Source: Escherichia coli
GTDB lineage: Bacteria; Pseudomonadota; Gammaproteobacteria; Enterobacterales; Enterobacteriaceae
Assembly: GCF_024298765.1 (NCBI RefSeq)
Contig: NZ_CP101210.1
Direction: 5' to 3' (one strand)
DNA length: 64,000 nucleotides
Notes under the pieces: generated by a model
Told to the model about the DNA's origin: nothing
Database searches by the model: none
The model's input: only the letters and a program-made list of their open reading frames with translations
Position numbers and translations under genes: made by a program
Shown here: in pieces, positions 8,603-61,032 of the stretch
How positions within the stretch are numbered: the stretch's first letter is position 1
Layout of the letters: the number at the start of each line of letters is the position of its first letter

Positions 8603-8740
8603 ATGAAATCGAACCGTCAGGCACGTCATATTCTTGGACTGGACCATAAAATTTCTAACCAGCGCAAAATAGTTACCGAAGGTGACAAATCCAGCGTGGT
8701 AAATAACCCAACCGGCAGAAAACGCCCCGCTGAAAAGTAA
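8603..8740 (+). CDS. sra: Stationary-phase ribosome-associated protein Sra (RpsV)
   Basis: 45-aa ORF ([22 protein letters not shown]...) with RBS ggag; below the ORF-track size cutoff; found by reading the bdm-maeA spacer. Confidence 0.85.
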
Positions 8741-8770
8741 TTCATAACCATCAGTCCTCAATGACGATTA

Positions 8771-8800
8771 AACACCATTGCCTGCGCAATGGTGTTTTTG
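8771..8800 (+). terminator. Rho-independent terminator after sra
   Basis: Hairpin aacaccattg-cctgcg-caatggtgtt followed by tttttgttttt. Confidence 0.7.
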
Positions 8801-12168: not shown

Positions 12169-12175
12169 TAAATAT

Positions 12176-12199
12176 CCTCCGGCATAGCCGGAGGTTTTT
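12176..12199 (+). terminator. Rho-independent terminator after yddM
   Basis: Hairpin cctccgg-cata-gccggagg followed by ttttt. Confidence 0.7.
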
Positions 12200-12202
12200 C
12201 AA

Positions 12203-12875
12203 ATGCGCCTATAAGGCTCTCTTACCAGCCGCGCCCTAACAGGCGCACACGATCTGACATTTGCATCCAACTTCGTTACTTACGGCCCGTAAACGGGCTG
12301 CCCGGATAGGGAATCGATAACTGCTCTCCCATTTTATCCTCTTCAAGCTGGTGCTTTATGTAATCCTGTATCTTCGCCGTGTTCTTACCCACCGTATCGA
12401 CGTAGTACCCTCTGCACCAGAACTCTCTGTTCCTGTATTTGAATTTCAAATCACCAAACTGCTCGTAAAGCATCAGACTGCTTTTCCCTTTCAGATATCC
12501 CATAAAGCCGGATACACTCATTTTGGGCGGGATCTCCACAAGCATATGGATATGATCTGCACAGCATTCAGCTTCAAGAATCCGTACGCTTTTCCACTCA
12601 CACAGCTTTCTCAAAATACTGCCTATTGCTCTACGCTTCTCTCTGTAGAACACTTGTCTTCGGTATTTTGGCGCAAAAACTATGTGATATTTACAGTTCC
12701 ATCGGGTGTGCGCTAAGCTCTTTTCGTTCCCCATTGGGACCCCCTTTTGATTTCTTGTTTGACACTTGCAGTTGCCAGACCGCAAGGTGTTTTAACAAAT
12801 CAAAAGGGGTTTTAATAACTGGCTCAAAGCTGAAAGCTTTCCGGAACCCCCAGCCTAGCTGGGGGTTTTCTGTGC
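12203..12875 (-). mobile_element. IS200 insertion sequence (IS200/IS605 family); boundaries approximate
   Basis: Contains the Y1 (HUH) transposase gene, an RBS-sequestering stem upstream of tnpA, and the left-end hairpin (aaacccccagctaggctgggggtt on the minus strand, + coordinates 12843..12870); ends not mapped to the base. Confidence 0.8.
12276..12734 (-). CDS. tnpA: IS200 transposase TnpA (Y1 HUH transposase)
   Basis: 152-aa product starting MGNEKSLAHTRWNCKYHIVFAPKYRR with the HIHMLVEIPP (HuH) motif; recognised as essentially the Salmonella/E. coli IS200 TnpA. Confidence 0.9.
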   Translation of the reverse strand: MGNEKSLAHTRWNCKYHIVFAPKYRRQVFYREKRRAIGSILRKLCEWKSVRILEAECCADHIHMLVEIPPKMSVSGFMGYLKGKSSLMLYEQFGDLKFKYRNREFWCRGYYVDTVGKNTAKIQDYIKHQLEEDKMGEQLSIPYPGSPFTGRK

Positions 12876-12878
12876 ACA

Positions 12879-12909
12879 AAAAAATGGCGCTTCTTAAAGC
12901 GCCATTTTC
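12879..12909 (-). terminator. Rho-independent terminator of the fdnGHI operon
   Basis: On the minus strand, hairpin aaaatggcgctttaagaagcgccatttt followed by a T-run, 20 bp past the fdnI stop. Confidence 0.7.
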
Positions 12910-29931: not shown

Positions 29932-30236
29932 GATTGTGCTCCTTTTGAAAGATGTCAGTAAAATTAACACACGTTGTGAATGTCGTGTGTCCGGTAATGC
30001 GTTTTTACGGCAATAATGCCTACTTGAAATTGTACATATTTGTACTACACACTTTTAAATAAAGCGCCAATGAAAACGTTAACTTGCAGAATATATTCTT
30101 CGCCAACATGCCATTAAGAAAACATCAAGTTCCCGGCTTGCCAATTTGTTAACGCCCATTATAGTTATTCTTGCCCTCACTAAAAATTTTCATCCGTAAT
30201 TACCCCCAATAAAAATCCATTCTGGAGACGCTTAAG

Positions 30237-32213
30237 ATGCAGCTTAATCATATCGTTAAAAGTCTGCTAATAACGGGATTATTCACCACCAGTTCTTTAC
30301 CTCTCCTCGCGGCGGAAGCTCCTAAAGACGCCACCGCAGCCACACAACAAGCAAACAATTTACTCTACAACCAGTTGCCGTTTGCCGATAACACTGACTT
30401 TACTGATGCCCATAAAGGTTTTATTGCCCCTATCCCTCAAGACGTGATTAAGGGCGAACAAGGGAATGTTATCTGGGATCCACAACATTACGCTTTTATC
30501 AAAGAAGGCGATAAAGCCCCTGATACGGTGAATCCGAGTTTATGGCGTCAGGCGCAACTGATAAATATCAGCGGGTTATTCGAAGTAACTGAAGGTGTCT
30601 ATCAGATTCGCAATCTCGATCTATCAAATATGACCATCATTGAAGGCAAAGAGGGTATTACCGTCGTTGATCCCCTTGTTTCAGCAGAAACAGCCAAAGT
30701 GGGTATGGATCTCTATTACAAAAATCGCGGCAAAAAACCGGTAGTGGCGGTTATCTATACACACAGTCATGTCGATCACTACGGTGGTGTTCGTGGCGTA
30801 ATTGATGAAGCTGACGTTAAATCAGGCAAAGTTAAAATCTATGCGCCAGCCGGATTTTTGGAGGAAGCCGTTTCCGAAAACATCATGGCTGGCAATGTTA
30901 TGAGCCGACGAGCCAGTTATATGTATGGCAACTTATTGAAACCTGATGTTAAAGGCCAGGTGGGGGCTGGACTGGGAACGACTACTTCAGCAGGAACAGT
31001 CACGTTGATTGCTCCTACTAACTACATCACCAAAACCGGACAAATAGAAACTATTGACGGGTTGACTTATGATTTCCTGATGGCGCCAGGTTCTGAAGCG
31101 CCTTCTGAAATGCTGTGGTTTATTGAAGAAAAGAAACTGATCGAAACCGCTGAAGATGTCACGCACACCCTTCATAACACCTATTCGCTGCGTGGGGCTA
31201 AAATTCGCCAACCGCTGCCGTGGTCAAAATATATTAATGAAGCTCTCAATTTGTGGGGTGATAAAGCCGAGATTATTCTCGCTCAACATCACTGGCCAAC
31301 CTGGGGCAACGATAACGTGGTCAAACTGCTTAAAAGCCAGCGTGATTTGTATCGTTACATCAATGATCAAACTCTGCGCATGGCAAATCAAGGGATGACC
31401 CGTGATGAAATTGCCGCAAACTTTAAACTTCCCTCTTCACTGGCTAACACCTGGGCGAATCGCGGCTATTACGGTTCGGTAAGTCATGACGTGAAAGCAA
31501 CTTACGTGCTTTATCTCGGCTGGTTTGATGGTAACCCCGCGACGCTTGATGAACTGCCGCCAGAAGAAGGCGCAAAAAAATTCGTCGAGTATATGGGCGG
31601 TGCTGATGCCATTTTACAGAAAGCCAAACAGGATTATGACCAGGGTAATTTCCGCTGGGTTGCCCAAGTTGTTAGTAAGGTGGTGTTTGCCGATCCAAAC
31701 AACCAGGCAGCGAGAGATCTGGAAGCTGATGCGCTTGAGCAGTTAGGCTATCAGGCTGAATCTGGGCCGTGGCGTAATTTCTATCTCACTGGCGCACAGG
31801 AATTGCGTAATGGTGTACAAAAATTACCAACACCAAATACTGCCAGCCCAGACACCGTGCGTGCGATGACGCCGGAGATGTTCTTTGATTATCTTGCCGT
31901 CCATATTAATGGTGAGAAAGCGGCAGATGCCAAAACCGTGTTGAATTTCGATTTTGGTGAAGATGGCGGCACCTATAAAGTGGAGCTTGAAAATGGTGTT
32001 CTCAATCATACAGCTGGTGTAGAGGCTTCGGATGCTGATGCCACTATCACTCTGTCTCGTGATGTATTGAACAAAATTGTACTGAAAGAAGAGACGCTGA
32101 AAGAAGCCACGGCCAAAGGAGATGTCAAAATTACTGGCAATGCGGAAAAACTCAACGAGCTGTTAGGTTATATGGATAATTTTGAATTTTGGTTCAATAT
32201 AGTGACACCATAA
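30237..32213 (+). CDS. Secreted MBL-fold alkyl/aryl-sulfatase-like protein (SdsA1/YjcS family)
   Basis: 658-aa ORF; N-terminal signal peptide; metallo-beta-lactamase motif THSHVDHYGG; C-terminal SCP2-like region; not part of the K-12 gene order at this position as I recall it. Confidence 0.8.
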   Translation: MQLNHIVKSLLITGLFTTSSLPLLAAEAPKDATAATQQANNLLYNQLPFADNTDFTDAHKGFIAPIPQDVIKGEQGNVIWDPQHYAFIKEGDKAPDTVNPSLWRQAQLINISGLFEVTEGVYQIRNLDLSNMTIIEGKEGITVVDPLVSAETAKVGMDLYYKNRGKKPVVAVIYTHSHVDHYGGVRGVIDEADVKSGKVKIYAPAGFLEEAVSENIMAGNVMSRRASYMYGNLLKPDVKGQVGAGLGTTTSAGTVTLIAPTNYITKTGQIETIDGLTYDFLMAPGSEAPSEMLWFIEEKKLIETAEDVTHTLHNTYSLRGAKIRQPLPWSKYINEALNLWGDKAEIILAQHHWPTWGNDNVVKLLKSQRDLYRYINDQTLRMANQGMTRDEIAANFKLPSSLANTWANRGYYGSVSHDVKATYVLYLGWFDGNPATLDELPPEEGAKKFVEYMGGADAILQKAKQDYDQGNFRWVAQVVSKVVFADPNNQAARDLEADALEQLGYQAESGPWRNFYLTGAQELRNGVQKLPTPNTASPDTVRAMTPEMFFDYLAVHINGEKAADAKTVLNFDFGEDGGTYKVELENGVLNHTAGVEASDADATITLSRDVLNKIVLKEETLKEATAKGDVKITGNAEKLNELLGYMDNFEFWFNIVTP

Positions 32214-32227
32214 ATTTACTGCATACC

Positions 32228-32250
32228 GGGCAGGTATCCTGCCCTTTTTT
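32228..32250 (+). terminator. Rho-independent terminator after the sulfatase-like gene
   Basis: Hairpin gggcagg-tatc-ctgccc followed by tttttt. Confidence 0.75.
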
Positions 32251-32307
32251 GGTTAAAAAATGGCTGAACGAAGAAAAACGCATCACTCATGGAAAACCCG
32301 CCGCGAT

Positions 32308-33357
32308 ATGGTTATTCGCGGCATGACGATTAGTTTGCCATGGTTTGCTTTTATCAATGTCAGTTTTGCATTGATAATTTTGCTGCGCCGTGTTCTGTTT
32401 AATGACCTTACTCCACCCTGGTTAAATGAAAAAAGCCTTATACATTCTATTGATATATCTGCAACGGGTATTCTGCTAATTTGCAGTGGTTTACTACTCA
32501 TCCCTCGGCAAAAAACATTACCTATCCAGGTGCTATTAGTTGCCCTGAGCCTGCTATGGTCATGGTGTAGTTATCACTTTATTGCGTACTGGACGCTGCA
32601 GTTTGCTTATCCACTATGTGTATTATTAATGCTTAGTGGCGTTGTCGCACTTTATTTCCATACCCCATCATTGCTCGCATTTGTCATTCCCTTATGGTTC
32701 ACCACTCCAATAGCGAGTCTTATGCTTAATCAACAGATCAATATTCATTTTGCTGTTGTATGGTGTATTTTTTCACTGGCGCTATATGGTGGGCGACTCA
32801 TTTTGTTACGTTGGTTTGAAGAAGCATGGGTACAAAACAGTTATAACAACCAGTTAATTAATCGCCTTGATGCATTAGCACATCGTGATCCTTTAACTGG
32901 GATAGCAAACCGACGTGCAATGAACAGTATCTTACACGACGCGATAGATAACGGCGGGTCATTTGCTCTTATTATGCTGGATGTCGATTTTTTTAAACGT
33001 TACAACGACACTTACGGGCATCCTGCTGGGGATCGTTGTCTAATACAAGTTGCCGACGCTCTACAGCGTTCAACTCGCCAGTCGGAGGATGTTGTTGTCC
33101 GTTATGGTGGCGAAGAGTTTGCCATCATACTTTTTAATGCAACATTGCCGGAAGCAGAGACGGTAGCAGCCAGAGTGAAGCAAGAACTTAAACTGGCAGC
33201 TATCCCACATCAGGCATCTGCTGTTAATGCATTCGTTACGGTTAGTCAGGGGATTACCTGTTCTGCTCCCGCAAAAACGGCTGAACAAATTATTTCAGAT
33301 GCCGACGCTGCGTTATACCGGGCGAAAGAAAGTGGGCGAAATCGATGGGCTTTATAA
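32308..33357 (+). CDS. Membrane-anchored diguanylate cyclase (GGEEF), accessory
   Basis: ORF track gives 32260..33357 (365 aa); about 200 aa of polytopic membrane N-terminus followed by a GGDEF domain with an RYGGEEF active site and an I-site-like RxxD. Start uncertain because the ATG at 32260 directly abuts the upstream terminator; 32308 (MVIRGM...) is an alternative. Confidence 0.8.
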   Translation: MVIRGMTISLPWFAFINVSFALIILLRRVLFNDLTPPWLNEKSLIHSIDISATGILLICSGLLLIPRQKTLPIQVLLVALSLLWSWCSYHFIAYWTLQFAYPLCVLLMLSGVVALYFHTPSLLAFVIPLWFTTPIASLMLNQQINIHFAVVWCIFSLALYGGRLILLRWFEEAWVQNSYNNQLINRLDALAHRDPLTGIANRRAMNSILHDAIDNGGSFALIMLDVDFFKRYNDTYGHPAGDRCLIQVADALQRSTRQSEDVVVRYGGEEFAIILFNATLPEAETVAARVKQELKLAAIPHQASAVNAFVTVSQGITCSAPAKTAEQIISDADAALYRAKESGRNRWAL

Positions 33358-33430
33358 GCATTAGGGGACTGGACAGATTACGTCTCTCCTCGCTTAACAA
33401 GGGCTGACGGAGGGTAATAATTGTCTATAG

Positions 33431-33982
33431 CTATCTTCTTAGCGATGTCTTTCTGGTATCACATTGGATCGGTGCAATTATTTTTCCTTTAATACCCATT
33501 ATGTTAAGAAATTCAGAAACAGCTGTAATCTCATTGGTTTTTTCATTCGTCTTGATCTTCCAAGGAATCTGACTGTGCATTATTGAGAACACACTAATAA
33601 CGTGAATCGCTCCCTTGCGACGACTCTTGTCATAAGAGTACCGGAGCGTTTTTCCATCAATTGCAATGACGTCTTTATCATCTGAAGAATGGCAGTCAAG
33701 CATCCAGTTAATAAAGCACTCATGAAATTTTGCAGGACTGATACAGGATACAACTCTGGCAATGGTATCGTGAACAGGAATACCATTATCAAAATCACCA
33801 TATTGCTTCAAAAAATCGAGATGTGTTTCCCCAAAATCCTCTATATCTTCCCAGCCTTCTGCACCCGAAATAACGGCACAAATAGTCAACAGTAGAATAT
33901 CCGATAATTTATGTTCCACTTTCCAGGCTTGTCTGTAATCGGGGATAATAGAAATATGTTCCATCAATTTTTTAAGTTCCAT
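33431..33982 (-). pseudogene. ydcC: Truncated H-repeat-associated (ISAs1-family transposase-like) gene, N-terminal fragment
   Basis: 183-aa ORF matching only the N-terminal half of the roughly 378-aa H-repeat protein; the remainder is missing where the DGC gene begins. Confidence 0.7.
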
Positions 33983-34222
33983 TTTGTTCTCCTTAATTAT
34001 GTAAGGAGTATTTGATCATGTATAAGCAATAAAAAACAGCTTTAGATAATGAGGAATATCTCAATTTTTAAACATAAAATGCGAATTATTTAGTACAAAA
34101 AAGCAGCGTTACGTGATCTTTCCATGGAAAAGAGAGTAATACACTGATTTTTAACGCAGATTGCCAGTGCTACCAACACTGACAATCTGCTCACCACAAG
34201 CAACTAACAGAGGTAGTTAATC

Positions 34223-34552
34223 ATGGCTGAACACGATATTACGCCAGAAGTCGCCATTTCCAAAACACAGCGCCGCTATAAAGTCGGCTATGTCAGAGCC
34301 CGCCACATAAACAGCAAAACCTACATGACCACGTACTACTCACGACACCCCAGCCTGAACCTTAAGGGCGACTGGCTGAAAGAGGCCGGATTTGATACCG
34401 GACGGGGTGTCACGGTGAAGATTTCGGAGGGGTGCCTGACCATCATCGCTGACAGTGACGAGGTGCAGGAACTGCGGGAGGAACTTTATCAGGTTAAACA
34501 GGTGGTTAAGGGGATGCGGAACGGGATGTTTAGTGTGCTGAACGAGAATTAA
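34223..34552 (+). CDS. SymE-family type I toxin-like protein (AbrB/SpoVT-fold)
   Basis: 109-aa ORF with RBS agagg; core LKGDWLKEAGFDTGRGVTVKISEGCLTIIA closely parallels E. coli SymE as I recall it ([30 protein letters not shown]). Confidence 0.65.
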   Translation: MAEHDITPEVAISKTQRRYKVGYVRARHINSKTYMTTYYSRHPSLNLKGDWLKEAGFDTGRGVTVKISEGCLTIIADSDEVQELREELYQVKQVVKGMRNGMFSVLNEN

Positions 34553-34602
34553 ATAATAAAAAAGCCGGGGAGATTTAAAATCTTCCCGGCTTTCTTTATC
34601 AT

Positions 34603-34905
34603 CTAAAAAGGTAATAATCCTCTAATAGGAGAAAATTTTGTAATATCAATACCTTGTAATTTAAAGTAATTAAAAGCATCTTCTATATTGGAAAACGCAC
34701 TAATTTCTTCAGTTGCATAATCTTCGAACACTTCCATTTTATTTTCTGGTATTTTGAAAAAATAGGTATTGTATTTTTCATCCTGTTTTTTAATGGCATA
34801 TTGGAAAAAATAACTTTCACCATTTATTTCCTTTATCTCATCAAAACCTCTAACCTTACCATTCTCTATAGCAACAATTAATTTTTCAATAGACAAATCA
34901 ACCAT
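34603..34905 (-). CDS. Putative Rhs toxin immunity protein
   Basis: 100-aa acidic, AT-rich ORF; start overlaps the toxin-tip stop by 8 nt; strong RBS (gagga). Confidence 0.6.
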   Translation of the reverse strand: MVDLSIEKLIVAIENGKVRGFDEIKEINGESYFFQYAIKKQDEKYNTYFFKIPENKMEVFEDYATEEISAFSNIEDAFNYFKLQGIDITKFSPIRGLLPF

Positions 34906-35312
34906 CTATATCTATCCTCACCATTGTCCCATCAGAACGTTTAATATTTATATGAGGCAAAGAACCATGCCCTGTGCCTTTATGGTCATCATGACCATAT
35001 ACACGACCAGTATTAGAATCAATAGGGTAACCTTTCCTATAACGGACAGTACCATCTCTTTTCTTAAATTGTTCCATCTTATGTTTTTTTCTAATACCGG
35101 CGGCATCCTGCGAACCGATCCCTCTTACTTTTTGAGCATCAGGAAAGGCCTCCATCAATAAATCATGGGCTTCCTGTTTTGATTTAACTGTGACAACGGT
35201 TCCTTGAGGCCCCTCTCGCAAAGATTTCGCGTTTTTGGAACATGCAGTCAGTCCCAGCGGATCGATCCAAGAGAGCGGATTCGGCGCGTATTGGTAGAGG
35301 TTTATTCCCCCC
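34898..35312 (-). CDS. Rhs C-terminal segment (core end INLYQYAPNPLSWIDPLGL plus variable toxin tip), out of frame with the Rhs core ORF
   Basis: Reading frame B on the minus strand gives GGINLYQYAPNPLSWIDPLGL followed by about 117 aa of His-rich variable tip (YGHDDHKGTGHGSLPH); it is joined to the core only if the G7 run at 35307..35313 is read as G6. Confidence 0.65.
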
Positions 35313-38300
35313 CGCTAACCCTATCGGATCCGTTACCATGAACCGCCCGACATCCGGATCATAGTACCTGTGCAGATTGTAATGCAGTCCCGTTTCCCTG
35401 TCGAGGTACTGTCCCTGGTAGCGCAGGTTCTGCGCCACCCCGCCGTGGTCCTTCTCCTGTATCGTGTTACCCCAGACCTGATACCCCGTCTCCCACACGA
35501 TTTTCCCGTCACTGTCCGTCATCTCTTCCGGCGCGCCGTTCACATCCGTGTGAAAATACAGTATCCGGTTCGGGCCCTCTTTGCCCGCCTTATCCACCCG
35601 CGCCAGCGGTTCATAACTCCCCGGGTCCCTGTAGATGTACAGGCTGTCTGTTCCCTCCGGCCTGCTCTCCTGCGCCAGCCGCATTCCGTCCCATAAAAAT
35701 GCCGTCCGGTTGTACGGTTTACCGTCAGGGCTGATGTGCTGTTTTTCCGTCCGCCTCCCCAGCGCATCGTACACATACCGGTACGTTCCCCGCGCTGTCG
35801 TCACTTCCACCATCCGGTGTTCCGCATCATAACGGTAACTCTGCGTGCCGCTCCGCCCCTCCTTTTCCACCGCACGGCCAAATTCGTCGTAACGGTAGTG
35901 CACACCACGGTAAGACATCAGCCGGTTGAACGGCACCACGCTGTTTTCTGCCGTGGCCCTTTCCCCCGCGCGCCGCCCCAGCAGGTTTCCCGCCGCGTCG
36001 TACTGCCAGCTCGCCAGATACCCCTCATCCTCCGAGCGGCACGCCGTGATGCGCCCCGTGGGGTCGTAGAAGTAATCCGTTTCCCCCCGCCGGCTGTGCC
36101 GCGTCTTCAGCAGTTCATCCTCGCCACTGTAGCTGTACTGCCGGTCCGTGAACGTCTCCGGTACCACCCCGCGCATCCCGCTGTATGTCTCCCTGCGCTT
36201 CAGCCGCCCGGCGGGGTCGTAAAGCTGCCGCGTGCTCAGTCGCCCCTGACTTCTGAGCACTTCACGGTGCAGGGCGTCACGAGTGAACTCGCTGATGACC
36301 TCCCGGTCCAGATTTATCTGCTGGAGATGGCCGCTGCCGTAGTACAGATGACGCTGCGTTCTGCCGTCCGGAAAGGTGGTGGCTGTCCGGTTGCTGAGTT
36401 CATCGTACTGATGGGTCAGGACGCCCTGCGCCGTCTCCTCAGTCAGCATCCGCCCCAGTCTGTCGTAACTGAAACGGATAATCTCCGGTGCGTCTGTTTC
36501 CCCGGCATCCGACCGTCGGCGGCGGATTTCCAGTAACTGGTCTGCCGCATCATGGACGTATTCCGTACGGCTATCGGCTGTCTCCTTTGCCGTGAGCCGG
36601 CCCGCCGCATCACGTGCCAGCCGGTGGCGGATTTCACCGCCCCGGTCCCCGGTGAACACCACTTCCGTGACCGCGTTCAGCGCGTTGTAGCGGTACGTCT
36701 GGCGGCAGCCGTCCGGATTTATCTGCTCCGCCAGACGGTCCAGCACGTCATGGCGGAACCGGTAGCTTTCTCCGTTCTCGTTTGTCAGCGTGACCAGACG
36801 CCCGTAAGCATCGTACCCGAACGCCGTCCTGCGCCCCGTCGCGTCTGTCCGGCTGCGCACCCGGCCCTGCCCGTCCCGCTGCCAGCGCGTTATCCTCCCC
36901 ATCGGGCTGGTGTACTTCACCAGCCTGCCCGCCGCGTCCGACTGGTAATTCACCGTGCGGCCGTCCGCCAGTATCACCTCCGTCAGGTGGCCGCTGTCGT
37001 CATACCCGTAGCGCGTGCTGTGGCTCTGCGCGTCTGTCATCCGTATCAGCCGCGTGCGTTCGTCGTAGAACCAGGCCGTCTGCGAGCCGGAACAGTCCGT
37101 GTGCCGCATGAGCTGCCCGTCTTCGTTCCACTGAAGGTATTTATTCCCCCCGCGCGCATCGGTTATCTGCACCACCTGGCCGTGGCGGTCATACTGATAC
37201 CGGGTGTTCTGCTGCAGCGGGTCGGTCACCGCAAGAAGATTGCCGCGTTCATCGTACTCACAGCACCAGCTGTTCCCCGCCGCGTCCACCTCCGTTTCCG
37301 GCTGGTGCCACACCGGGTGCCACTGTGTCTGTGCCACCCGCCCCAGCGGGTCGTGCGTCTCCGTGATATGCCCCTGCCGGTCATACACATAGCGCCATTT
37401 GCCGCCCTGCGCATCGGTCATTCCCAGTAACAGCCGTTCTTCGTCGCTCCAGCGGAACGTCGTCACCTGCCCGGCTTCGTCCTGGTACGCCGTCACCTGA
37501 TTCTGCGCGTCCCACTGATGATAACGCGTGCGCCCCAGCCCGTCCGTCACGCACAGCCTGCGTGACGCCAGGCTCCACGCCAGCCGGTACTGTTCACCGC
37601 TGTCCGTGTGGTGCCCCGTCACCCGCCACGCTGCGTCATCCGGGCCTTCATACCAGCTCCACTGGTAATAATACCCTTCGCCGCCCGGCTGGCGGTGCAG
37701 GGTCATGCAGTGGTTTTCGTCGTAAGCAAACTCGCGCAGCAGGTGTCCCGTGCTGTCGTACACGCCGTTCAGGTCGCCGGCCTCGTCATAGCGGTAACGA
37801 CGCAGCAGTAAAGGAGCCGTCTCAGGGAAATGCTGATAAATCTGTGTCACCCGCCGGGGATGCGCCGCCAGTTCATAATGCAGACGGATGCACGGACGCT
37901 GCTGTTCACCGCTGATTTGCGTGATGCGCCCCAGCTCGTCGTAGTACAGATTCAGACAGTTGCTGTTGCGGTCGCCCAGCATTTTCAGCCGCTGGCGCTG
38001 CGGGTGATGCGGGTCGGCTTCAAACAGAAAAAACTGCCCGTCATCGCTGCTGATAAGCCAGTGCCCCTGCTCACCCCGCCTTACCGCCAGTCCTTCGCCG
38101 GGGCTGTAAAACCCGCTCCCCGGCAGCACGGCCTCCATATCCAGGCGTCGCCCCATGCCCGACACAAAGGTCATGCAGTTTTCGTCAGCAGTACCCGGCG
38201 TGCGCCCGAGGCTGACTTCATACATCACGCTCCAGCCCTGCCCGAACATCCCTTCCGTGCGGTCGTCACGACTGCTGTACACGCGCTGCCAGTCCAGCGG

Positions 38301-39560
38301 AAAGTGGCCCGGCAGACTGAAATCGAAGTCATCGTCATCGGCCAGATATTTGGCTCCGGTGGCGGCATTGACCGGATGCGGAAGGGCACTGATGGCCTTC
38401 TGCGTCATCACCCCCATCCCGACACTGGCAGCAAAACAGGCGATTTTAGAAAGCATTTTGCCCGGGCGAAGAAACATCAGCGCCACGGTTGCCACCAGGG
38501 TTATCTGCGACCTGCCGCTTCTGATATCCCTGACCACCAGTAACGGACCGCCAATGCGGACATCCGGTGACACAAACGCCCCGTTCCCCGGCTCATTCAC
38601 CACCCTGGCCTCGCAGGTGCAGCGTGCCCCGCTGCGTGCCGCCGGCTGGCTGTTGATACGCACATCCCGCGCGCCTTCCGCGATATATTCCGCTGCGGGC
38701 GGTTCATCATCGCCTTTGAACAGATTACTGATGCTGCCAATAACCGCATTCACTCCCTGAAAGGCGGTTTCCAGCATACCGTCCGGACTCAGCAGGTTAA
38801 GGGCCGTTCCCAGGGGGTCATCCAGAAAGGCGGCTTTTTTTTGTGCGAGAAACTGCGTCAGTGAGGAGGGATGTTTATGGCAGTCGATTTTATCGTCAGG
38901 GGTCGGGGTGGAGCCCGGGGCCGCACTGGCCACGGTGGGCTGCCATAGTTCCGACACAAAATGTGTCACGCCATCCACCATTTCAGAACGCCCTTCTTCC
39001 GTACTGAGCTGGTCGTGCAGCGCCCGGGACATCAGCACAGGCCCTGTCACCGGGTTAACCGCCAGGGCTATGGCCCCCGCCATTTCCAGATATTCCCCGG
39101 CCACATCCAGGAACGTTCTGGCATCCTCCTGACGCTGCGCTTCTTCCTGTTCCGCCTTCGCCTGCGCCTCCTGCGCCTCAATGTCCTGCCGCGATGCCGC
39201 AGTCGCCGCGGCCCGCGCGGCAGGTTTGCTGTTGATCCATGTGTCGCCAGAGCCGGTGAGGATGTAACCTTCAATCTGAGGCGGGAAAAGCATATTTGCG
39301 AGGTCTGAACAGACTTCGCTGACCGTGTCTGTCACGCCGGTGTACACCATCGCCACACCCGCCACAAAACCGGTCAGCACGACGGCCGTGCACCCCATCG
39401 TGATCCCCACTGACGCCGCCAGTAACGAGGTTGTGCCGACAATGAGGGCATCAATAACGACATTTGCGGCCACCTCCAGCACCGCCCCCAGCACATCTGC
39501 CATAAACGACGTATGCAGCAGGGCATCACCCTGCCTTGCCGCCCAGAATGCCTCTTCCAT
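35184..39560 (-). CDS. Rhs-family T6SS effector core (prePAAR motif, TM helices, PAAR, YD repeats), as the ORF in the present frame
   Basis: 1458-aa ORF; N-terminus MEEAFWAARQGDALLH matches the prePAAR AARxxDxxxH motif; hydrophobic helices follow; literal PAAR motifs; numerous YD/RHS repeats; core end RYYDPDVGRFMVTDPIGLAGG; after the G-run the frame runs 41 unrelated codons to a stop at 35184. Occupies the K-12 rhsE position by synteny. Confidence 0.85.
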   Translation of the reverse strand: MEEAFWAARQGDALLHTSFMADVLGAVLEVAANVVIDALIVGTTSLLAASVGITMGCTAVVLTGFVAGVAMVYTGVTDTVSEVCSDLANMLFPPQIEGYILTGSGDTWINSKPAARAAATAASRQDIEAQEAQAKAEQEEAQRQEDARTFLDVAGEYLEMAGAIALAVNPVTGPVLMSRALHDQLSTEEGRSEMVDGVTHFVSELWQPTVASAAPGSTPTPDDKIDCHKHPSSLTQFLAQKKAAFLDDPLGTALNLLSPDGMLETAFQGVNAVIGSISNLFKGDDEPPAAEYIAEGARDVRINSQPAARSGARCTCEARVVNEPGNGAFVSPDVRIGGPLLVVRDIRSGRSQITLVATVALMFLRPGKMLSKIACFAASVGMGVMTQKAISALPHPVNAATGAKYLADDDDFDFSLPGHFPLDWQRVYSSRDDRTEGMFGQGWSVMYEVSLGRTPGTADENCMTFVSGMGRRLDMEAVLPGSGFYSPGEGLAVRRGEQGHWLISSDDGQFFLFEADPHHPQRQRLKMLGDRNSNCLNLYYDELGRITQISGEQQRPCIRLHYELAAHPRRVTQIYQHFPETAPLLLRRYRYDEAGDLNGVYDSTGHLLREFAYDENHCMTLHRQPGGEGYYYQWSWYEGPDDAAWRVTGHHTDSGEQYRLAWSLASRRLCVTDGLGRTRYHQWDAQNQVTAYQDEAGQVTTFRWSDEERLLLGMTDAQGGKWRYVYDRQGHITETHDPLGRVAQTQWHPVWHQPETEVDAAGNSWCCEYDERGNLLAVTDPLQQNTRYQYDRHGQVVQITDARGGNKYLQWNEDGQLMRHTDCSGSQTAWFYDERTRLIRMTDAQSHSTRYGYDDSGHLTEVILADGRTVNYQSDAAGRLVKYTSPMGRITRWQRDGQGRVRSRTDATGRRTAFGYDAYGRLVTLTNENGESYRFRHDVLDRLAEQINPDGCRQTYRYNALNAVTEVVFTGDRGGEIRHRLARDAAGRLTAKETADSRTEYVHDAADQLLEIRRRRSDAGETDAPEIIRFSYDRLGRMLTEETAQGVLTHQYDELSNRTATTFPDGRTQRHLYYGSGHLQQINLDREVISEFTRDALHREVLRSQGRLSTRQLYDPAGRLKRRETYSGMRGVVPETFTDRQYSYSGEDELLKTRHSRRGETDYFYDPTGRITACRSEDEGYLASWQYDAAGNLLGRRAGERATAENSVVPFNRLMSYRGVHYRYDEFGRAVEKEGRSGTQSYRYDAEHRMVEVTTARGTYRYVYDALGRRTEKQHISPDGKPYNRTAFLWDGMRLAQESRPEGTDSLYIYRDPGSYEPLARVDKAGKEGPNRILYFHTDVNGAPEEMTDSDGKIVWETGYQVWGNTIQEKDHGGVAQNLRYQGQYLDRETGLHYNLHRYYDPDVGRFMVTDPIGLAGGNKPLPIRAESALLDRSAGTDCMFQKREIFARGASRNRCHS

Positions 39561-39578
39561 GTCCCGTTCCCTGTGTGA

Positions 39579-40031
39579 TTAATTCGTCCCGGCTTCCTGC
39601 CGCATCCTGAAGCGCAGATTCTTTTTAATTTCAGCCCAGCGCGTCATATCTGCCGGGGTCAGCGGTGTGGTTCGGGCGTAGGTGAAGGCCATCATGACCC
39701 GCTCACCCGGCAATACAAATGCCACCTGACACTGGTACACCTGCTCGTTACCCCGGAGAAACTGGCTCTGTATTTCCAGTCCTTCTTCACCGTCATTAAT
39801 CCCCACCCGTGTTACCTGAACGGGCGTGTAGTGAAGATCCTTTACCTGTTTCTCCAGTTTTTTCATTTGCTGTTCAATCTGGGAGGCTAATTCGTCTCCT
39901 TCCTGCATCTGGCCCCGGCTGATAATGAGTGCAGCGTCGGGATCGCTGAGGCGCAGCATATTAATAGTACTGTCCTGAATAATATTCCCGGAAAAAGTTA
40001 CAACAGTTTCATTGAGATAATACTCCGTCAT
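39579..40031 (-). CDS. DUF1795 (Eag-family) effector chaperone
   Basis: 150-aa ORF immediately upstream of the prePAAR Rhs gene; size and position typical of Eag chaperones. Confidence 0.7.
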   Translation of the reverse strand: MTEYYLNETVVTFSGNIIQDSTINMLRLSDPDAALIISRGQMQEGDELASQIEQQMKKLEKQVKDLHYTPVQVTRVGINDGEEGLEIQSQFLRGNEQVYQCQVAFVLPGERVMMAFTYARTTPLTPADMTRWAEIKKNLRFRMRQEAGTN

Positions 40032-40081
40032 AATGATATGAGTCCTTTTAAATTAATAAATTATTTAATGATGGTTTTTGT

Positions 40082-42076
40082 TTATTTTTTAGTCATGAAG
40101 GCGACATCTATCGCCAATTGAAGGGCTGTTTTTTCCGATGTTCCTGGCGGAAGTATATCTGCCGCCCTGTTATTCATATTTAAATCAAGCTGACCTGATT
40201 GTGTATTTATCTTTCCATTTTCTGTTGCAGTAATATTAAAATTCTTACAGGTTATATTAAATATTCCGTCACTGGTCATTTGCAGGATAGTGTTCCCACA
40301 ACTAAGAATTATGGAATCTCCCGCAGCAAGGCGTAAATTCTGTACGGCCTGAATCGTTTTATTTTGTCCGGCAAGGGAGGTATCATCCATCTGAACTGTA
40401 AGAGAACGTTCCTCACCAATTATCGCTGTTTCTGTTTTATCAATGACTTTAAGGCGATTATTGCCCACCCAGTGGCTTTCATTATTATTTACTTCAATGC
40501 GTTGATCTTTCTCGGCATGCAACCAGATTTCTTCTCCGCCAGTTTTATCCTCAAAACGCAAGGCGTTAGCATTGGTCGGGCCGCCGCCGATAGTGTGGCT
40601 GTAAAACCCGCTTTGCGTCGCTGCGCCCGGTAGTCCCCACGGTGGCATGGTGTCCTGATTGTAGGTACGCCCAACGATTATCGGTAAATCCGGATCACCG
40701 TTTTTGAAATCCACCAGTACTTCCTGACCAATGCGCGGGATCTGAATGCCACCGAATCCTTTACCCGCCCACGGATAACTGACACGGACCCAGCAGGAAC
40801 TATTTTCGTCATTCTTACCGTAACGATCCCAGCCAAACTGAACTTTCACCCGGCCATATTTATCTGTCCAGATTTCCTGCCCTGCCGGGCCGGTGACGAT
40901 GGCGCTCTGCGGGCCTTTAGTGTGGGGTTTGCTCAGGGTTCGTTGTGGGCGGTAAACTTCGCTGGTGGGATGCAGTTCAAAGCTGGTTGAGTAAGAGAAA
41001 TGCTGCTCCTGGCCGCTGTGTTGCGCATTGTCCTGTATAAATAGCGTGGTCTGTACCAGCAGATATTCCCGGTTCACTTCGGCTGTCGGATAGTTTTCCA
41101 GGGTGAAGGTAAAACCTGTCATCAGGGTACGAATATTGCCGCTGCCCTGTACCCGACTACCTGGGCTACGCTGTTCTTCCATGCGAATGCGTGTCAGCAT
41201 TTCACCTTCACTCTTTGTGAAGTAATCTCCCGGCCATTCGTAGTGCTCATATTCAGCAAGGCCGGTTTCACGCGGATTAGCCACGGTGCTCTTCAGCAGT
41301 GAACGCGGCTTCATAAAGTCGAAATCATTCAGCACCCACTGTCCGCTGCGCAGACTTTCATTTGCTGTGATGGTATGGATAAACTCCTTGTCCAGTTTCA
41401 GCCCTTTCTGGTAATAACACACCAGCGGCGAATCTGCGCATGCCTTGTGGACATTAATGGCATCAGCCAGCACTAACGTGTGACTGTTCTCGCTGTGCTC
41501 AAACCACCAGTAGATACCCCACTCCTGCATCAGGCGCTGAACAAAATCGAAATCTGTTTCACCGTACTGCACCTGCCAGGCGCGAGTCGGATAATTTTCC
41601 ACCAGTCGTTTTTCCACTGGCCAGGGGTACTCATCCAGTACCTCATCCAGGATCTCCACCACGTTTTTATTCTGAAACGCTTTGTAGTCACTAGTGTGGG
41701 TCAGTATTTTTAACCACGGTTCGAGCCGCAGTTCATACACCACCGAACGTCCTTGATGACCAGCCACGCGTGCCGCCGTCACCAGCCCGCTGATATAACG
41801 TTTTCCGCCGCCATCCAATTCGATATTGACGCACAGATCTTTGCCCACCATCGGTTTGAGCTGCAGGTTGGCTGCGGGGGAAACATAGCCCAGGTTCAGG
41901 ATGTCAGGAGTTTTTAATTTAATAGAATAAGTAAATAGTTCCCCTACTGTTTCTGTACCCCCTAAGCTTGCAAACAGTAACATTCCATCAGGAACTGCGC
42001 TGCCGCTCAAAGTCACGTTATGTGTACCCGATCCAGTTAGTGCGCCGGATGGATAATCTGTAGCTGCAAAACTCAT
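40082..42076 (-). CDS. vgrG: Type VI secretion spike protein VgrG
   Basis: 664-aa ORF; gp27/gp5-like architecture; directly precedes the Eag-Rhs genes. Confidence 0.85.
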
Positions 42077-42297
42077 AATTAATCCTTTTAACTAGAAATG
42101 GATAAGTGCTAATAAGAAATCTTACAGAGAATAAAATATGCAATATATTCGTAGCTGGCATAAAACATCTCAATACTTATGCGTGCTACTGAAGATACTA
42201 TCAACCATATATGCCTTGAAGAATGCACCGTCATGTTAACCTGGTGGAAACATTCACCTAAAGTACATTAATAAAACTAATAAAATTATTTAATTTG

Positions 42298-42654
42298 TTA
42301 TTTGATATGATTATCATCAAGTCTTAAAATACGTTCTCCGGTTCTAATTATGCTAAAACCATAGTATTCTTTTTTACTTCCGGAAGAGAGCATATATTTC
42401 CCTATATACATAACATCTGAAGATAGCTCACTTATATCAATACATACGGGTTCGAACTGACCTGTCACTCTTTTCAACTTTATTGCATTGCCATATTTAC
42501 CTTCATATAAAACATAATTTGAAATAATATTCCCATCGTCTGGTTTTGAACAAATCTGTCCGTCTTGCAAATATACACTACCGGGTAACAATGGGCGAAC
42601 ATAATCACCAACAGTGCATCCCGACAAAAAGAAAAACAAAAAGAATCTCTTCAT
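42298..42654 (-). CDS. Small lipoprotein of unknown function (candidate immunity protein)
   Basis: 118-aa ORF; signal peptide with lipobox FLSGC; AT-rich; start overlaps the stop of the upstream HExxH gene (ATGA). Confidence 0.6.
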   Translation of the reverse strand: MKRFFLFFFLSGCTVGDYVRPLLPGSVYLQDGQICSKPDDGNIISNYVLYEGKYGNAIKLKRVTGQFEPVCIDISELSSDVMYIGKYMLSSGSKKEYYGFSIIRTGERILRLDDNHIK

Positions 42655-43220
42655 ATGACACCCGCAGGAAATAAATTAAGCACCTTTTTGTATTTTTCCG
42701 ATAGAGTGTTCACTGATTCAGTTGTATCACCTACATAGTTAACATTTGCCAAATCAGCCACCAGTCCATAGTTAATTAATAGCCAATAATCAACAACTAT
42801 AGATGCTTGTTGTTCCATGGAATAAGAAGAAATTGACTGTAAATTAAGATCGTAATGATAATTTGCCGCCCAAGAAAATAAACCACGCAACTTAACTGCA
42901 TACCCTTTCTGATATTGCCAAACATGCATCATTTCATGAATAAACAAGTGAGAAGCACCTGCTACTGTTTCACGATCACCAGGCATTGCTTGCGATGAAT
43001 AATCTGAACTATAAACAGCATCAGGATAATACATTTCCCCGTTTGGGGTCATCGCTGTTCTTTCCCCTTGACCAGGCAAATATTTTTCATTGTGGATCCA
43101 TACCTTGCTATAATCAATTGTATTCTCAAAAATCGATCTGGCCAATGTTAATTCACCAGATGTCATTCTCCTTAATGACATATCCTTTCCCCTGGAAATA
43201 ATATCTTTCAGATAAAACAC
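42651..43220 (-). CDS. Cysteine-free HExxH zincin-like protein (candidate T6SS cargo effector)
   Basis: 189-aa ORF (alternative start at Met14, position 43181); single HEMMH motif within ASHLFIHEMMHVWQYQ; no signal peptide; AT-rich; translationally coupled to the lipoprotein gene. Confidence 0.55.
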   Translation of the reverse strand: MFYLKDIISRGKDMSLRRMTSGELTLARSIFENTIDYSKVWIHNEKYLPGQGERTAMTPNGEMYYPDAVYSSDYSSQAMPGDRETVAGASHLFIHEMMHVWQYQKGYAVKLRGLFSWAANYHYDLNLQSISSYSMEQQASIVVDYWLLINYGLVADLANVNYVGDTTESVNTLSEKYKKVLNLFPAGVI

Positions 43221-44118
43221 AAACGCCCTTTGATGTTCAATATTCCCACTTTATACAGTATTGATGACATCATCTTCATAGAAAATAAAATCAAAGCAAG
43301 TTATCAACGTTTCCCGTTATGATTTCTTAACATTAATTCTCAGCATTTTTATTAATCTATCTTCAATATCAATAACCGATGCAAATGATTACGCAGCTAA
43401 CATAATTCTCATCAATTGATTAATATCTGTAAACGCTACCGCCCCACCCTGATATCTTAATCTGCACATAGCAATCTTAACGTTATGCCCCATACATTAG
43501 TAATGTAAATTAAGAATTCGGAATATATCAAATTCACTTCATAAATTAATATCGGGAATGATATACACATTAATTATATTGAAGTAATGTTTTAAGAGTT
43601 GTAATGACCATGGAACAGGACTAATTCCAGAAACTCCTGTTGGGCAATAGCGCGTTTATCATCCTACATGCCTCTTACATTTTTTAGCCTTTTCTTTAAC
43701 GTCAGCAATTGGCTCATTTAATCAGCAATGGTATTGGTATTTGGCGTATTACCCCTGAAACCCGTCATGTGCTAGCACCTCACTATTCAATGAGCCAACC
43801 ACGCCAGTGTCCACTGCAACCACTGGCGTTCAGAGCGACGAACGAGTGGCGCAAGAGTAGGACTGCCGTCGGGCATCATCAAACCAATAGTGGTTGTTTC
43901 CGTCAAAATTTCATCAGGTTGCTATTTGGTTGCCGGCCGCCTTTATCCCCACATATTTATAGCGGGATTATTTTGCATCGTTACACGATAAAAGGTAGGA
44001 TTCTGCGCCGACAGTTATACCCATAAAGAATAATGGTGAATCTTGTCATCGCCAGGATGAATAAACATTGTTCATGGCAACTTATATGACTTTTTCATTA
44101 AAGCAATCAGGGAGAGCA

Positions 44119-52217: not shown

Positions 52218-52451
52218 TCAGAGGATGGTGCCACCTTTGGTTAACTGTTCGTGGCGCGCTTCCATATCTTCTTTATGTTTGCGACCGTGATGGGCGATCG
52301 CTGTGCGAAGACGCTGCTGCTGGGTATAGCGTTCTTCCCGACTTAACTCCGCATCATCGCTCAGGGCGATTAATAATTCGTTCATATGGGCAATGACGCT
52401 CTCTTCAATCGCGGCATCCACGCGCGCGATGACTTCATCCAGATGCGACAT
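52218..52451 (-). CDS. ydcY: Small conserved protein YdcY
   Basis: 77-aa ORF. Confidence 0.8.
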   Translation of the reverse strand: MSHLDEVIARVDAAIEESVIAHMNELLIALSDDAELSREERYTQQQRLRTAIAHHGRKHKEDMEARHEQLTKGGTIL

Positions 52452-52536
52452 ACTTTCTCCTTAGCCACTTGTGAAATTTATCGATTCATCCAAATGATAT
52501 AAGTCTGCGTGGTGCCGTCAAGCCAGTGAGTAAGAT

Positions 52537-52710
52537 TTAAAACAGTGAAAACAACAGCGCCACCGGGAAACTCATCGGCCATGTTGCCCCCACCAGAAAG
52601 GCGCTTAAGAAACGGATGCGTTTCTTATCGTGAGAAAGAAACCAGGTGATAAGAAATGCGATTGCTGCCATAACCGCATAAAAAACAAGCATGTGTTGAT
52701 AGAGAGACAT
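52537..52710 (-). CDS. ortT: Orphan membrane toxin OrtT (YdcX; GhoT-like)
   Basis: 57-aa product from the ATG at 52710 (MSLYQHMLVFYAVMAAIAFLITWF...); two predicted TM helices. Confidence 0.8.
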   Translation of the reverse strand: MSLYQHMLVFYAVMAAIAFLITWFLSHDKKRIRFLSAFLVGATWPMSFPVALLFSLF

Positions 52711-52904
52711 GTACGGGCGTCCAGCCAGATGAATAAAACGCGCGCAAATATGCGTCATTTTTTGACGTACATCAAGTTTTTTAACCGGTTTGAGAAAAAA
52801 ACATCAAACAGCAACTTGCCCTTATCCATCTTCAGAATGAGTATTATTGTGGATTTTCTTAACCCGTACTATACACATAGGGGCAATGATAAAAGGTGGC
52901 AAAA

Positions 52905-53000
52905 ATGAATGTTTCCAGTAGAACTGTAGTACTGATAAATGTCTTTGCTGCTGTTGGTTTGTTTACTCTTATCTCTATGAGATTTGGCTGGTTTATTTGA
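52905..53000 (+). CDS. yncL: Small membrane protein YncL
   Basis: 31-aa ORF MNVSSRTVVLINVFAAVGLFTLISMRFGWFI preceded by RBS aaggtgg; found by reading the ortT-patD spacer. Confidence 0.75.
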   Translation: MNVSSRTVVLINVFAAVGLFTLISMRFGWFI

Positions 53001-53096
53001 TGTAGTGATTTTGCACGCAGCACGTACTGTCAGAGAAATCAGTGCTCTGACAGTACGCAAGATCATCTCATACTCTTACGATCTGCAATATTATCC

Positions 53097-54521
53097 TTAA
53101 TGTTTAACCATGACGTGGCGGACGACGGTGTAATCCTCCAGCCCATAAAGTGACATATCCTTGCCGTAACCAGAAAGTTTCTGCCCACCGTGCGGCATTT
53201 CACTTACCAGCATGAAATGGGTATTGACCCAGGTACAACCATATTGCAGCCGTGCGCTGACGCGATGCGCCCTGCCCACATCTTTCGTCCATACCGAAGA
53301 TGCAAGTCCGTACTGGCTGTCATTCGCCCAGTTTACCACCTGTTCTTCGTTGTCGAAGAGTGTAACACTCACTACTGGACCAAATACCTCTTTTTGCACG
53401 ATGGCATCGTCCTGTAATGCGCCAGCCAGCAGCGTCGGCGCATAGTAATAGCCATTACCCTTGCGCTTTTCACCGCCAGTGATCACTTTGATGTGCCCTG
53501 TCGCTTTCGCCTCTTCTACTGCCTTGCTGACGCGTTCGAGATGCGCCAGCGAGCTTAAAGGTCCAAGCTCCGTAGACTCGTCATCCGGCGCACCAGATTT
53601 TAACGTTGCCACCGCAGCACCCAGTTTTTCCACCAGCGTATCGTAAATGCCTTTTTGCGCGTAGATCCGACAAGCCGCTGTACAATCCTGTCCGGCATTG
53701 TAATAGCCAAATGTACGTACACCTTCGACCACTGCCTCAATATCCGCATCATCAAAAACAATCACTGGCGCTTTGCCACCAAGTTCCATATGAGTACGCT
53801 TTATGGACGGCGCGGTATGGCTGATGATGTGTTCCCCAGTGGCGATAGAGCCCGTCAGCGACACCATCCGCACTTTGGGATGACCGGTCAGCGGATCGCC
53901 CACCGTTTTGCCTCTGCCAAACAGTACATTAATCACGCCAGCCGGGAAGATATCTTTCGCCAACTCTGCCAACTTCAACGCTGTCAGCGGGGTAATTTCT
54001 GATGGTTTAAGCACTACGCAGTTCCCTGCCGCCAGCGCCGGAGCCAGTTTCCACGCAGCCATCATCAGCGGATAATTCCACGGTGCGATAGAAGCCACGA
54101 CCCCCAACGGATCGCGACGGATCATCGAAGTATGACCTTCAAGATATTCACCTGCCGCCAGACCATTCAGACAGCGCGCCGCACCAGCGAAAAAGCGAAA
54201 AACATCGACAATCGCCGGGATTTCATCATTGAACGCACTATGCAGCGGTTTGCCACAATTACGGGACTCCAGTTCGGCAAAAACCTGACCATTTTCTTCG
54301 ATAACATCAGCCAGTTTCAGCAGACATTCCGCACGCACTTTCGGCGTGGTTTGCCCCCATTCGGCAAATGCTGCATCTGCCGCGCGAACAGCAGCATCGA
54401 CCTGCTCTGCGGATGCCTCGGCAATCTCCAGTAAAACGTCCCCCGTTGCCGGATTATAGACAGGCTGTTTTTCCCCTTCGCCGCTAACCAGTTCTCCGTT
54501 AATCAGTAACTTATGTTGCAT
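53097..54521 (-). CDS. patD: Gamma-aminobutyraldehyde dehydrogenase (ALDH family)
   Basis: 474-aa ORF; aldehyde dehydrogenase with catalytic Cys/Glu motifs. Confidence 0.92.
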
Positions 54522-60096: not shown

Positions 60097-60174
60097 TATC
60101 GAATCGTAATTATGTGCAGATGATTCGGCAGTCTATATCAGTTGTTAAAAATGACAACTTTTCATTAACTGTTA

Positions 60175-60591
60175 TCAAACCATCACCAGTGATAACTCTT
60201 TGCCAAGCGCCTTAGCCGCAAGCTGGACGGCGTCGATTTTTGTAGCATGGTGCAAGTTAAATAAGCGAGTAATCTCCTGTTTAGGTTTGCCAATTCGTCT
60301 GGCTAACTCTTGCTGAGTGATTTCTGACTGTAAAAAAGCATTTAACAGCAATACTTTAGAGGCGATACTTAAAGGCACTTCAATAAAGTGATCGTTGTTA
60401 GTTAATGGCGAAGGCAACGGGATTAGCTCATTATCTTCAAAATAAAAATCAAATGCGGTGAGTAAGGCATCTTTTGCTGCTTCCATCGCTTCAGCAACAG
60501 TTTCTCCCTGCGTCAACGCTTCAGGGATATCTACAAAAGAAACCACATAACCGCCTTCCGGCGCAGGAGTAAGAGTGACGGGATAACGCAT
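60175..60591 (-). CDS. hicB: HicB antitoxin
   Basis: 138-aa product from the ATG at 60591 (MRYPVTLTPAPEGGY...); the ORF-track start at 60612 is an alternative. Confidence 0.85.
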   Translation of the reverse strand: MRYPVTLTPAPEGGYVVSFVDIPEALTQGETVAEAMEAAKDALLTAFDFYFEDNELIPLPSPLTNNDHFIEVPLSIASKVLLLNAFLQSEITQQELARRIGKPKQEITRLFNLHHATKIDAVQLAAKALGKELSLVMV

Positions 60592-60634
60592 AATTTTGAC
60601 TGTCTCTCGCATGTCATTAACCTTCTTATGGCGA

Positions 60635-60811
60635 TTAATTTAAACCGAGTTGCTTCAGGATTGCTTTACGCAATGGTTCTTTTATCTCATCACTGGGGTG
60701 ACGCGGCATGACACTGCGTCGCCCTTGAAACCTGAGTTTCAAATGGTTGCTGCCATTCGCCACATCGACGCCCTGAGATTCGAGCCAACGTCTGAACTCG
60801 CTTTGTTTCAC
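60635..60811 (-). CDS. hicA: HicA mRNA-interferase toxin
   Basis: 58-aa ORF (VKQSEFRRWLESQGV...GRRSVMPRHP...) starting at GTG with RBS ggagg; below the ORF-track cutoff. Confidence 0.8.
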   Translation of the reverse strand: MKQSEFRRWLESQGVDVANGSNHLKLRFQGRRSVMPRHPSDEIKEPLRKAILKQLGLN

Positions 60812-61032
60812 ATCGCCTCCCTGCCGCTGAGTATATCAACAAAGTAAACATTAGTGTTTACCTCCGTGTGTAATTTGCTCGAAAATAGCACTAAATCGCC
60901 GCAACGGCAGAATGCAATGCAAAATCAGGAAGGAAGATTCCAGAATTTCTTTGCGCTAATTTGCAAAACTGAATAATAACCTCAAGAAACGATCGGCATC
61001 ATAGCGACAAAAGGTAAGAAAAAGGTGGCAGG

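Follow-up and report, generated by a model that had tools for sequence, protein, structure and literature searches.

OrtT, a two-helix inner-membrane toxin, damages the membrane and loses its toxicity when its start codon is changed from ATG to ACG; in the stringent response it lowers ATP, and it is reported to have no cognate antitoxin (PMC4344625). The same study reported a 2-fold rise in ortT upon heat shock, gave the intergenic distances around the gene as 194 bp and 85 bp, and described the 194 bp toward yncL as lying upstream of ortT; RNA antitoxin activity was not found in the spacers that flank the gene (PMC4344625). Predictions of sigma-E, sigma-H, and sigma-70 promoters for ortT have also been published. 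YncL, encoded next to ortT, is induced by stress and heat and depolarizes the membrane when overproduced, with nucleoid condensation upon early production (PMC12542507). It is cleaved in vivo by RseP (PMC10470546), and RIL-seq and TRIC-seq data place the yncL mRNA among sRNA targets. On its other side, yncL is paired with patD, and patD-yncL is among the convergent excludons, or overlapping-transcript pairs, of MG1655 (PMC12288877).

We studied these genes in a 64,000-nucleotide stretch of Escherichia coli chromosome (the window). It is 99.95 to 99.98% identical to strain 104 (NZ_CP029164.1) over nearly its full length and, bar some accessory differences, collinear in reversed orientation with ~1.505 to 1.572 Mb of K-12 MG1655. 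A preliminary description of the window had named four short genes, sra, hicA, ortT, and yncL. All four have the coordinates, strands, lengths, and start codons that it gave, and RefSeq puts the same names on the same bases in the near-identical strain 104 and in K-12. Each protein matches a curated family (PF08136 for sra, PF07927 for hicA, PF10753 for ortT, and NF000537 for yncL). Nothing speaks against these identities, and the set almost certainly consists of four small-protein genes already known from enterobacteria, all of them catalogued in RefSeq and described in publications. The identities, coordinates, and geometry given here were observed directly; the protein functions are taken from the literature. 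The preliminary description identified these known genes correctly and described their arrangement wrongly. The features of the ortT-yncL-patD region are as follows.

52537-52710, minus strand: ortT (ydcX), 57 aa, ATG start, no clear Shine-Dalgarno (SD) sequence; annotated "orphan toxin OrtT"
52711-52904, no strand: divergent control region of 194 bp, common to ortT and yncL, with two conserved blocks
52775-52770 (TTGATG), 17 nt, 52752-52747 (CATATT), minus strand: promoter-like block of ortT
52847-52852 (TTGTGG), 17 nt, 52870-52875 (TATACA), then the SD, plus strand: promoter-like block of yncL
52905-53000, plus strand: yncL, 31 aa, ATG start, SD AAGGTGG at 52893-52899; annotated YncL
53023-53057, no strand: hairpin with a perfect 13-bp stem and a 9-nt loop, in the 96-bp yncL-patD spacer
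53097-54521, minus strand: patD, gamma-aminobutyraldehyde dehydrogenase, stop codon at 53097-53099; converges on yncL

The ortT product matches the GhoT/OrtT profile PF10753 over residues 4 to 57 with a score of 96.9 bits (cutoff, 22.1; E = 8.3e-28) and shows the traits of that family, namely, a length of 57 aa and two hydrophobic segments with a short basic loop between them, the segments being visible as Kyte-Doolittle peaks at residues 9 to 25 and ~37 to 53. It aligns with K-12 GhoT, which also has 57 aa, free of gaps and with F38 aligned, at 63% identity, which is also the published figure (PMC4344625). Unlike its paralogue ghoT, which has ghoS directly upstream, ortT has no adjoining ghoS-like gene; its neighbors are ydcY and yncL, and no GhoS-type antitoxin gene is among them, as the term orphan toxin implies. 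The gene is identical to K-12 ortT (YdcX, b1445) in nucleotide sequence (0 differences in 174), with F38 present, and its surroundings are the same in K-12, with ydcY on one side and yncL and patD on the other. The membrane-damaging toxicity was reported for this identical K-12 protein (PMC4344625).

The yncL product scores 72.5 bits (E = 1.8e-20) with NF000537, an NCBIfam equivalog whose cutoff is 35, and has the features of YncL, being ~31 aa long, with a single transmembrane segment, and encoded between patD and ortT. The preliminary description had assigned two transmembrane helices to OrtT and one to YncL, and the hydrophobic segments that we counted agree with both numbers. In comparison with K-12 YncL (b4598), position, length, and SD are the same, and there is one nucleotide difference; the hydrophobic segment carries the change F13V, at a residue where other species have V or another hydrophobic amino acid (L or I). 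The ortT/yncL locus was found in ~5410 of 5426 complete E. coli genomes. Every part described here, sra and hicA included, belongs to a described family and shows all of the defining traits that we tested, except for the U-tract of the hairpin.

The hairpin between yncL and patD

A palindrome had been reported at 53028 to 53060. There is indeed an inverted repeat near those positions, but its arms lie at 53023 to 53035 and 53045 to 53057. The folding energy of the hairpin is −21.6 kcal/mol in the yncL-sense RNA (z = −4.4) and −22.5 kcal/mol in the patD-sense RNA (z = −4.0), and the stable stem-loop of an intrinsic terminator is therefore present. The U-tract is absent: no T-run follows the stem on either strand (the plus strand continues with CAAGATCAT and the minus strand with TGCTGCGTG), and a terminator scan was silent at this site. 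As there is no T-run on either strand, the hairpin is not a canonical intrinsic terminator, and we rejected that assignment. It resembles the hairpins of convergent excludons and bidirectional terminators in being a single stable hairpin in a short convergent spacer, and it differs from canonical bidirectional intrinsic terminators in that its stem has no flanking A-tract or U-tract.

Of 5426 E. coli genomes, 5411 carry a single copy of the hairpin, which is unannotated. Citrobacter and Salmonella also have a hairpin at this place in the corresponding spacer, but its sequence is different. When ten sequences from Escherichia, Citrobacter, and Salmonella were aligned, 90.8% of the cells were paired, and 7 of the 13 base pairs had changed on both sides with pairing kept, a count that was matched by 1 of 500 shuffles. 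As a control, we slid the partner strand by 1 to 3 columns, which left pairing at 34 to 51%. The sequence thus varies with its complementarity kept, which indicates selection on pairing and not on a recognition sequence. This structural conservation, with the covariation observed directly in the alignment, is a small new piece of knowledge about the region.

The main alternative is that the palindrome acts as DNA, either as a protein-binding site or as a REP-like mobile repeat, and not as an RNA hairpin. The lack of a U-tract would fit such an element, and perfect palindromes are typical of operator sites. However, with one copy per genome there is no repeat family, for which reason we rejected the repeat version outright, and the retention of complementarity across genera despite sequence change, at the 7 of 13 pairs noted above, is also at odds with a DNA element. 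We therefore consider this alternative unlikely. An RNA hairpin on which yncL and patD converge may instead set or shield the 3′ ends of the two transcripts as a common element, with some read-through, a role that we infer and to which we give about an even chance. A structurally conserved hairpin that lacks a U-tract would allow the read-through overlap that has been reported for patD-yncL.

The divergent spacer and the genes on either side

In a twelve-species alignment, the spacer between ortT and yncL shows two conserved blocks with a variable middle. The invariant bases of the block near ortT are TTGA-(N)-TCA-(N)-GCAT.T, and those of the block near yncL are CAA...TATAGT...CCC...CCACC. We infer from these sequences that the two blocks are promoters, one per gene; the assignment is a tentative one since both are weak matches that fell below the threshold of our consensus promoter scan and went unreported. 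The two genes are transcribed away from each other out of a conserved ~194-bp spacer, in which each has its own promoter-like block. The best sigma-70-like match of the region (TTGACG, 16 nt, TATCAT; 10/12) is located elsewhere, at 52494 to 52521 on the minus strand in the 85-bp ortT-ydcY spacer. It points into ydcY, which agrees with published work according to which ortT and ydcY do not form an operon. We also searched positions 52400 to 53100, covering ortT and yncL, for an sRNA or antisense partner and obtained no Rfam family match. The antisense or adjacent sRNA antitoxin that characterizes type I toxin-antitoxin systems was accordingly not seen for either gene.

A scan with one genome per species yielded 80 loci that encode OrtT, at 73 to 96% identity, in the Enterobacteriaceae and Erwiniaceae. 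A divergent yncL lies beside ortT in 25 of them, 176 to 197 bp away. The spacer measures 189 to 197 bp in Escherichia, Citrobacter, Salmonella (arizonae and diarizonae), and Intestinirhabdus, and Pluralibacter has a more diverged, 30-aa form of yncL at 176 bp from ortT. In the remaining 55 loci, for example, those of Enterobacter, Kosakonia, Lelliottia, and Pantoea, tblastn detected no yncL, and a search for a diverged version found no SD-preceded hydrophobic short ORF at the equivalent place. The pattern, in which ortT is widespread and yncL adjoins it only in the Escherichia/Citrobacter/Salmonella group, appears to be new, judging from the genomes sampled. Separately, we observed that the end of patD is ~186 bp from ortT in some Enterobacter genomes (L056, L057, and L078; ~2315-2501), with yncL missing between them, and that the patD-ortT gap is 1.2 to 2 kb in many other loci. 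This variation suggests a variable slot that is filled by yncL only in the Escherichia/Citrobacter/Salmonella group.

The neighborhood of the two genes raises the question of whether YncL is the missing partner of the "orphan" toxin OrtT, as its modulator or its antitoxin. The head-to-head spacing is kept in four to five genera, heat induction and membrane activity have been reported for both genes, and the clones tested for antitoxin activity in the earlier study contained the intergenic region and ydcY, with yncL itself never among them (PMC4344625). On the other hand, most sampled genera carry ortT with no yncL-like ORF beside it (the 55 loci above), a genomic library with 2.9x coverage gave no antitoxin (PMC4344625), and YncL itself depolarizes the membrane, the opposite of a protective role (PMC12542507). 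Such a partnership seems very unlikely to us. We are equally doubtful of a broader proposal in which ortT and yncL would form a two-gene membrane depolarization module, with YncL modulating or coregulated with OrtT and the hairpin coupling the module to putrescine catabolism via the overlap. In its favor, the 189- to 197-bp spacer and the two promoter-like blocks are kept across Escherichia, Citrobacter, Salmonella, and Intestinirhabdus; against it, ortT lacks a neighboring yncL in most genera and the published antitoxin screen was negative.

Both reading frames are conserved and under purifying selection, with dN/dS far below 1. The 57-aa ortT ORF is intact with the same ATG in all 80 species loci, and its pairwise dN/dS values against the window are ~0.03 to 0.07 across genera. 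The yncL ORF is kept together with its ATG and the AAGGTGG SD in Escherichia, Citrobacter, Salmonella, Intestinirhabdus, and Pluralibacter, with a median pairwise dN/dS of ~0.10 against the window. A 34-aa, GTG-started YncL was rejected because in one Citrobacter the GTG and the ATG are separated by a stop codon.

Mechanical ORF calling gives 73 aa at ortT, from an ATG at 52758. The frame is open for 16 further codons and ATG initiated both here and in K-12-like strains, so the real OrtT might be this longer product. However, Citrobacter, Kosakonia, Enterobacter, Pantoea, and other genera have in-frame stops in the extension or have it out of register, the Pfam model spans residues 4 to 57 of the shorter form, and GhoT likewise has 57 aa. 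Furthermore, the upstream ATG has no SD and falls within the conserved promoter-like block. A 73-aa OrtT is thus most improbable; with the extension broken in many genera and the 57-aa frame intact in every locus, we rejected the upstream start on comparative data and regard the 57-aa start as settled.

The preliminary description had ortT and yncL converging around a shared palindrome, which would then serve them as a bidirectional terminator, a layout with virtually no chance of being correct, since a strong palindrome does sit near yncL but the coordinates place ortT (minus strand, 52537 to 52710) and yncL (plus strand, 52905 to 53000) divergently, with their 5′ ends facing each other across 52711 to 52904, and the palindrome (53023 to 53057) beyond the yncL stop codon on the patD side, where it is shared by yncL and patD. 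The geometry is the same in K-12, with ortT and yncL head-to-head and yncL and patD convergent.

sra, hicA, and the remaining spacers

Sra is a stationary-phase ribosome-associated protein in K-12, and HicA is a type II toxin, the mRNA interferase of the hicAB operon. Their genes, and a further small gene discussed below, are located in the window as follows.

3435-3476, plus strand: yddY homologue, 13 aa (MVQLVDLAHCVSF), SD CAGGAG, 38 nt upstream of dosC
8603-8740, plus strand: sra (rpsV), 45 aa, ATG start, SD GAGGAG
8770-8797: terminator-like hairpin after sra, followed by a T-run
60175-60591, minus strand: hicB, the cognate antitoxin gene, 43 nt past the hicA stop codon and in the same orientation
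60635-60811, minus strand: hicA, 58 aa, GTG start, SD GGGAGG

The Sra sequence matches PF08136 (108.2 bits against a cutoff of 25) and NF007473 (74.5 bits against 35). The protein is identical to K-12 Sra (RpsV, protein S22, b1480), the bdm-sra-maeA synteny is the same, and the sra locus, like that of ortT/yncL, is present in ~5410 of 5426 complete E. coli genomes. A PDB sequence search with Sra found no chain. HicA scores 34.5 bits with PF07927 (cutoff, 27) and matches chain A of PDB entry 6HPB, a solved HicA (E = 1.7e-33). In comparison with K-12 hicA (b4532), there are 3 amino acid and 10 nucleotide differences, and the 58-aa length, the GTG start, and the order with hicB are the same. A hicAB sequence in some form is found in 5386 complete E. 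coli genomes, and the allele of the window is rare: over positions 60150 to 60870, identity to it is 99% or more in 75 of these 5386 genomes and 90 to 95% in 5142. The core genes that flank hicAB have ~97 to 99% identity to most strains.

A 53-aa ORF at 60690 to 60851 (minus strand) starts 40 nt upstream of the hicA GTG, in another frame, and spans the hicA start. Its SD (GGAGGT; −10.8 kcal/mol) is among the strongest in the window, and the K-12 version is open, with 54 aa. Most of the nucleotide differences in hicA alter residues of this ORF, which argues that the overlapping part is not under selection. Its first ~13 codons are identical to those of K-12 and may represent a short upstream translated element.

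All four named genes had been credited with ribosome-binding sites. Measured as anti-SD pairing, the claim is sound for sra (−8.8 kcal/mol), yncL (−7.2 kcal/mol), and hicA (−11.1 kcal/mol), for which the yardstick is the median of −6.55 kcal/mol over annotated genes in the window, but not for ortT, which has no recognizable SD and a best pairing of only −3.3 kcal/mol. The same gene is the exception to the claim that a 60-aa ORF cutoff hides all four. The cutoff does hide sra, hicA, and yncL, whose longest ORFs have 45, 58, and 34 aa, and above all the 13-aa yddY, but it would still list ortT through its 73-aa mechanical ORF. The four genes are textbook cases of small proteins hidden by length cutoffs, and the finding has little biological import.

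The preliminary description had also called for a small-ORF scan with ribosome-binding-site scoring and had suggested that spacers of the accessory region could hide similar genes. We searched the spacers between mapped annotated genes for ATG- or GTG-started ORFs of 10 to 75 aa at an anti-SD cutoff of −6 kcal/mol. At this cutoff or below, the simple SD-plus-start scan recovered sra, yncL, hicA, and yddY and missed the SD-less ortT. Among ORFs that lie entirely in spacers (7.46 kb in all), 15 SD-preceded short ones were counted, in comparison with 8.2 ± 2.7 in shuffled spacers. Eight of the 15 belong to known genes (one each to sra, yncL, and hicA, two starts of yddY, two inner frames of ortT, and the hicA-overlapping ORF), and those left are about the number expected by chance. 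Ten further spacer ORFs, including those of the 937-bp accessory spacer at 43182 to 44118 and the hicA-overlapping ORF, gave no significant NCBIfam or Pfam match. With a remainder near chance and no family match, the suggestion about the accessory spacers found no support within the window, and the scan added one gene, yddY, which had already been published, and nothing else beyond chance.

The yddY homologue is a fifth small gene that the preliminary description had overlooked. It differs from the curated and syntenic K-12 YddY (b4746) by the change R9H and is absent from the PGAP annotation of other E. coli strains. The YddY protein has been detected by epitope tagging (PMC6001520).

That the short ORFs are chance reading frames and not genes has next to no probability, since such ORFs do arise randomly (~8 SD-preceded ones in the shuffled spacers) and ortT lacks an SD, but every family match (34.5 to 108 bits) exceeds its cutoff, ORF length and start codon are kept across genera with dN/dS values of 0.03 to 0.1, and protein-level evidence has already been published; we rejected this reading. 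A lack of conservation or of evidence for translation, which had been named as what would undermine the four genes, was thus not encountered, given the family matches, the low dN/dS for ortT and yncL, and the published experiments.

Several differences from K-12 were seen elsewhere in the window. In K-12, osmC and dosP are separated by the ddpXABCDF operon; the entire operon is missing here, and the two genes adjoin each other at 7399 to 7466. An IS200C insertion occupies 12172 to 12881 between yddM and fdnI, with tnpA at 12276 to 12734 (minus strand) and, as a match to Rfam STnc490, the IS200C 5′ structured RNA at 12744 to 12867 (minus strand). Inside fdnG, a match to the Rfam family SECIS_3 (84.3 bits) at 16880 to 16938 (minus strand) is the expected selenocysteine insertion signal. 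The K-12 genes yncG-yncH-rhsE-ydcD-yncI-ydcC are replaced by an accessory block at 30020 to 43964, and two small genes of K-12, yncO and yncH, are missing. In its last ~780 bp (43182 to 43964), this block has no annotated gene or convincing ORF. It encodes an alkyl/aryl-sulfatase, a GGDEF protein, an ISAs1 remnant, SymE, an RHS toxin with downstream small ORFs, a DcrB-related protein, and a type VI secretion system Vgr protein. The SymE-family type I toxin gene of this accessory region, which is located at 34223 to 34552 (plus strand), makes up a further pair of toxin and antisense RNA, one that the preliminary description had left out: a match to the Rfam sRNA isrA (118.8 bits) lies antisense within its coding sequence, at 34294 to 34422 (minus strand).
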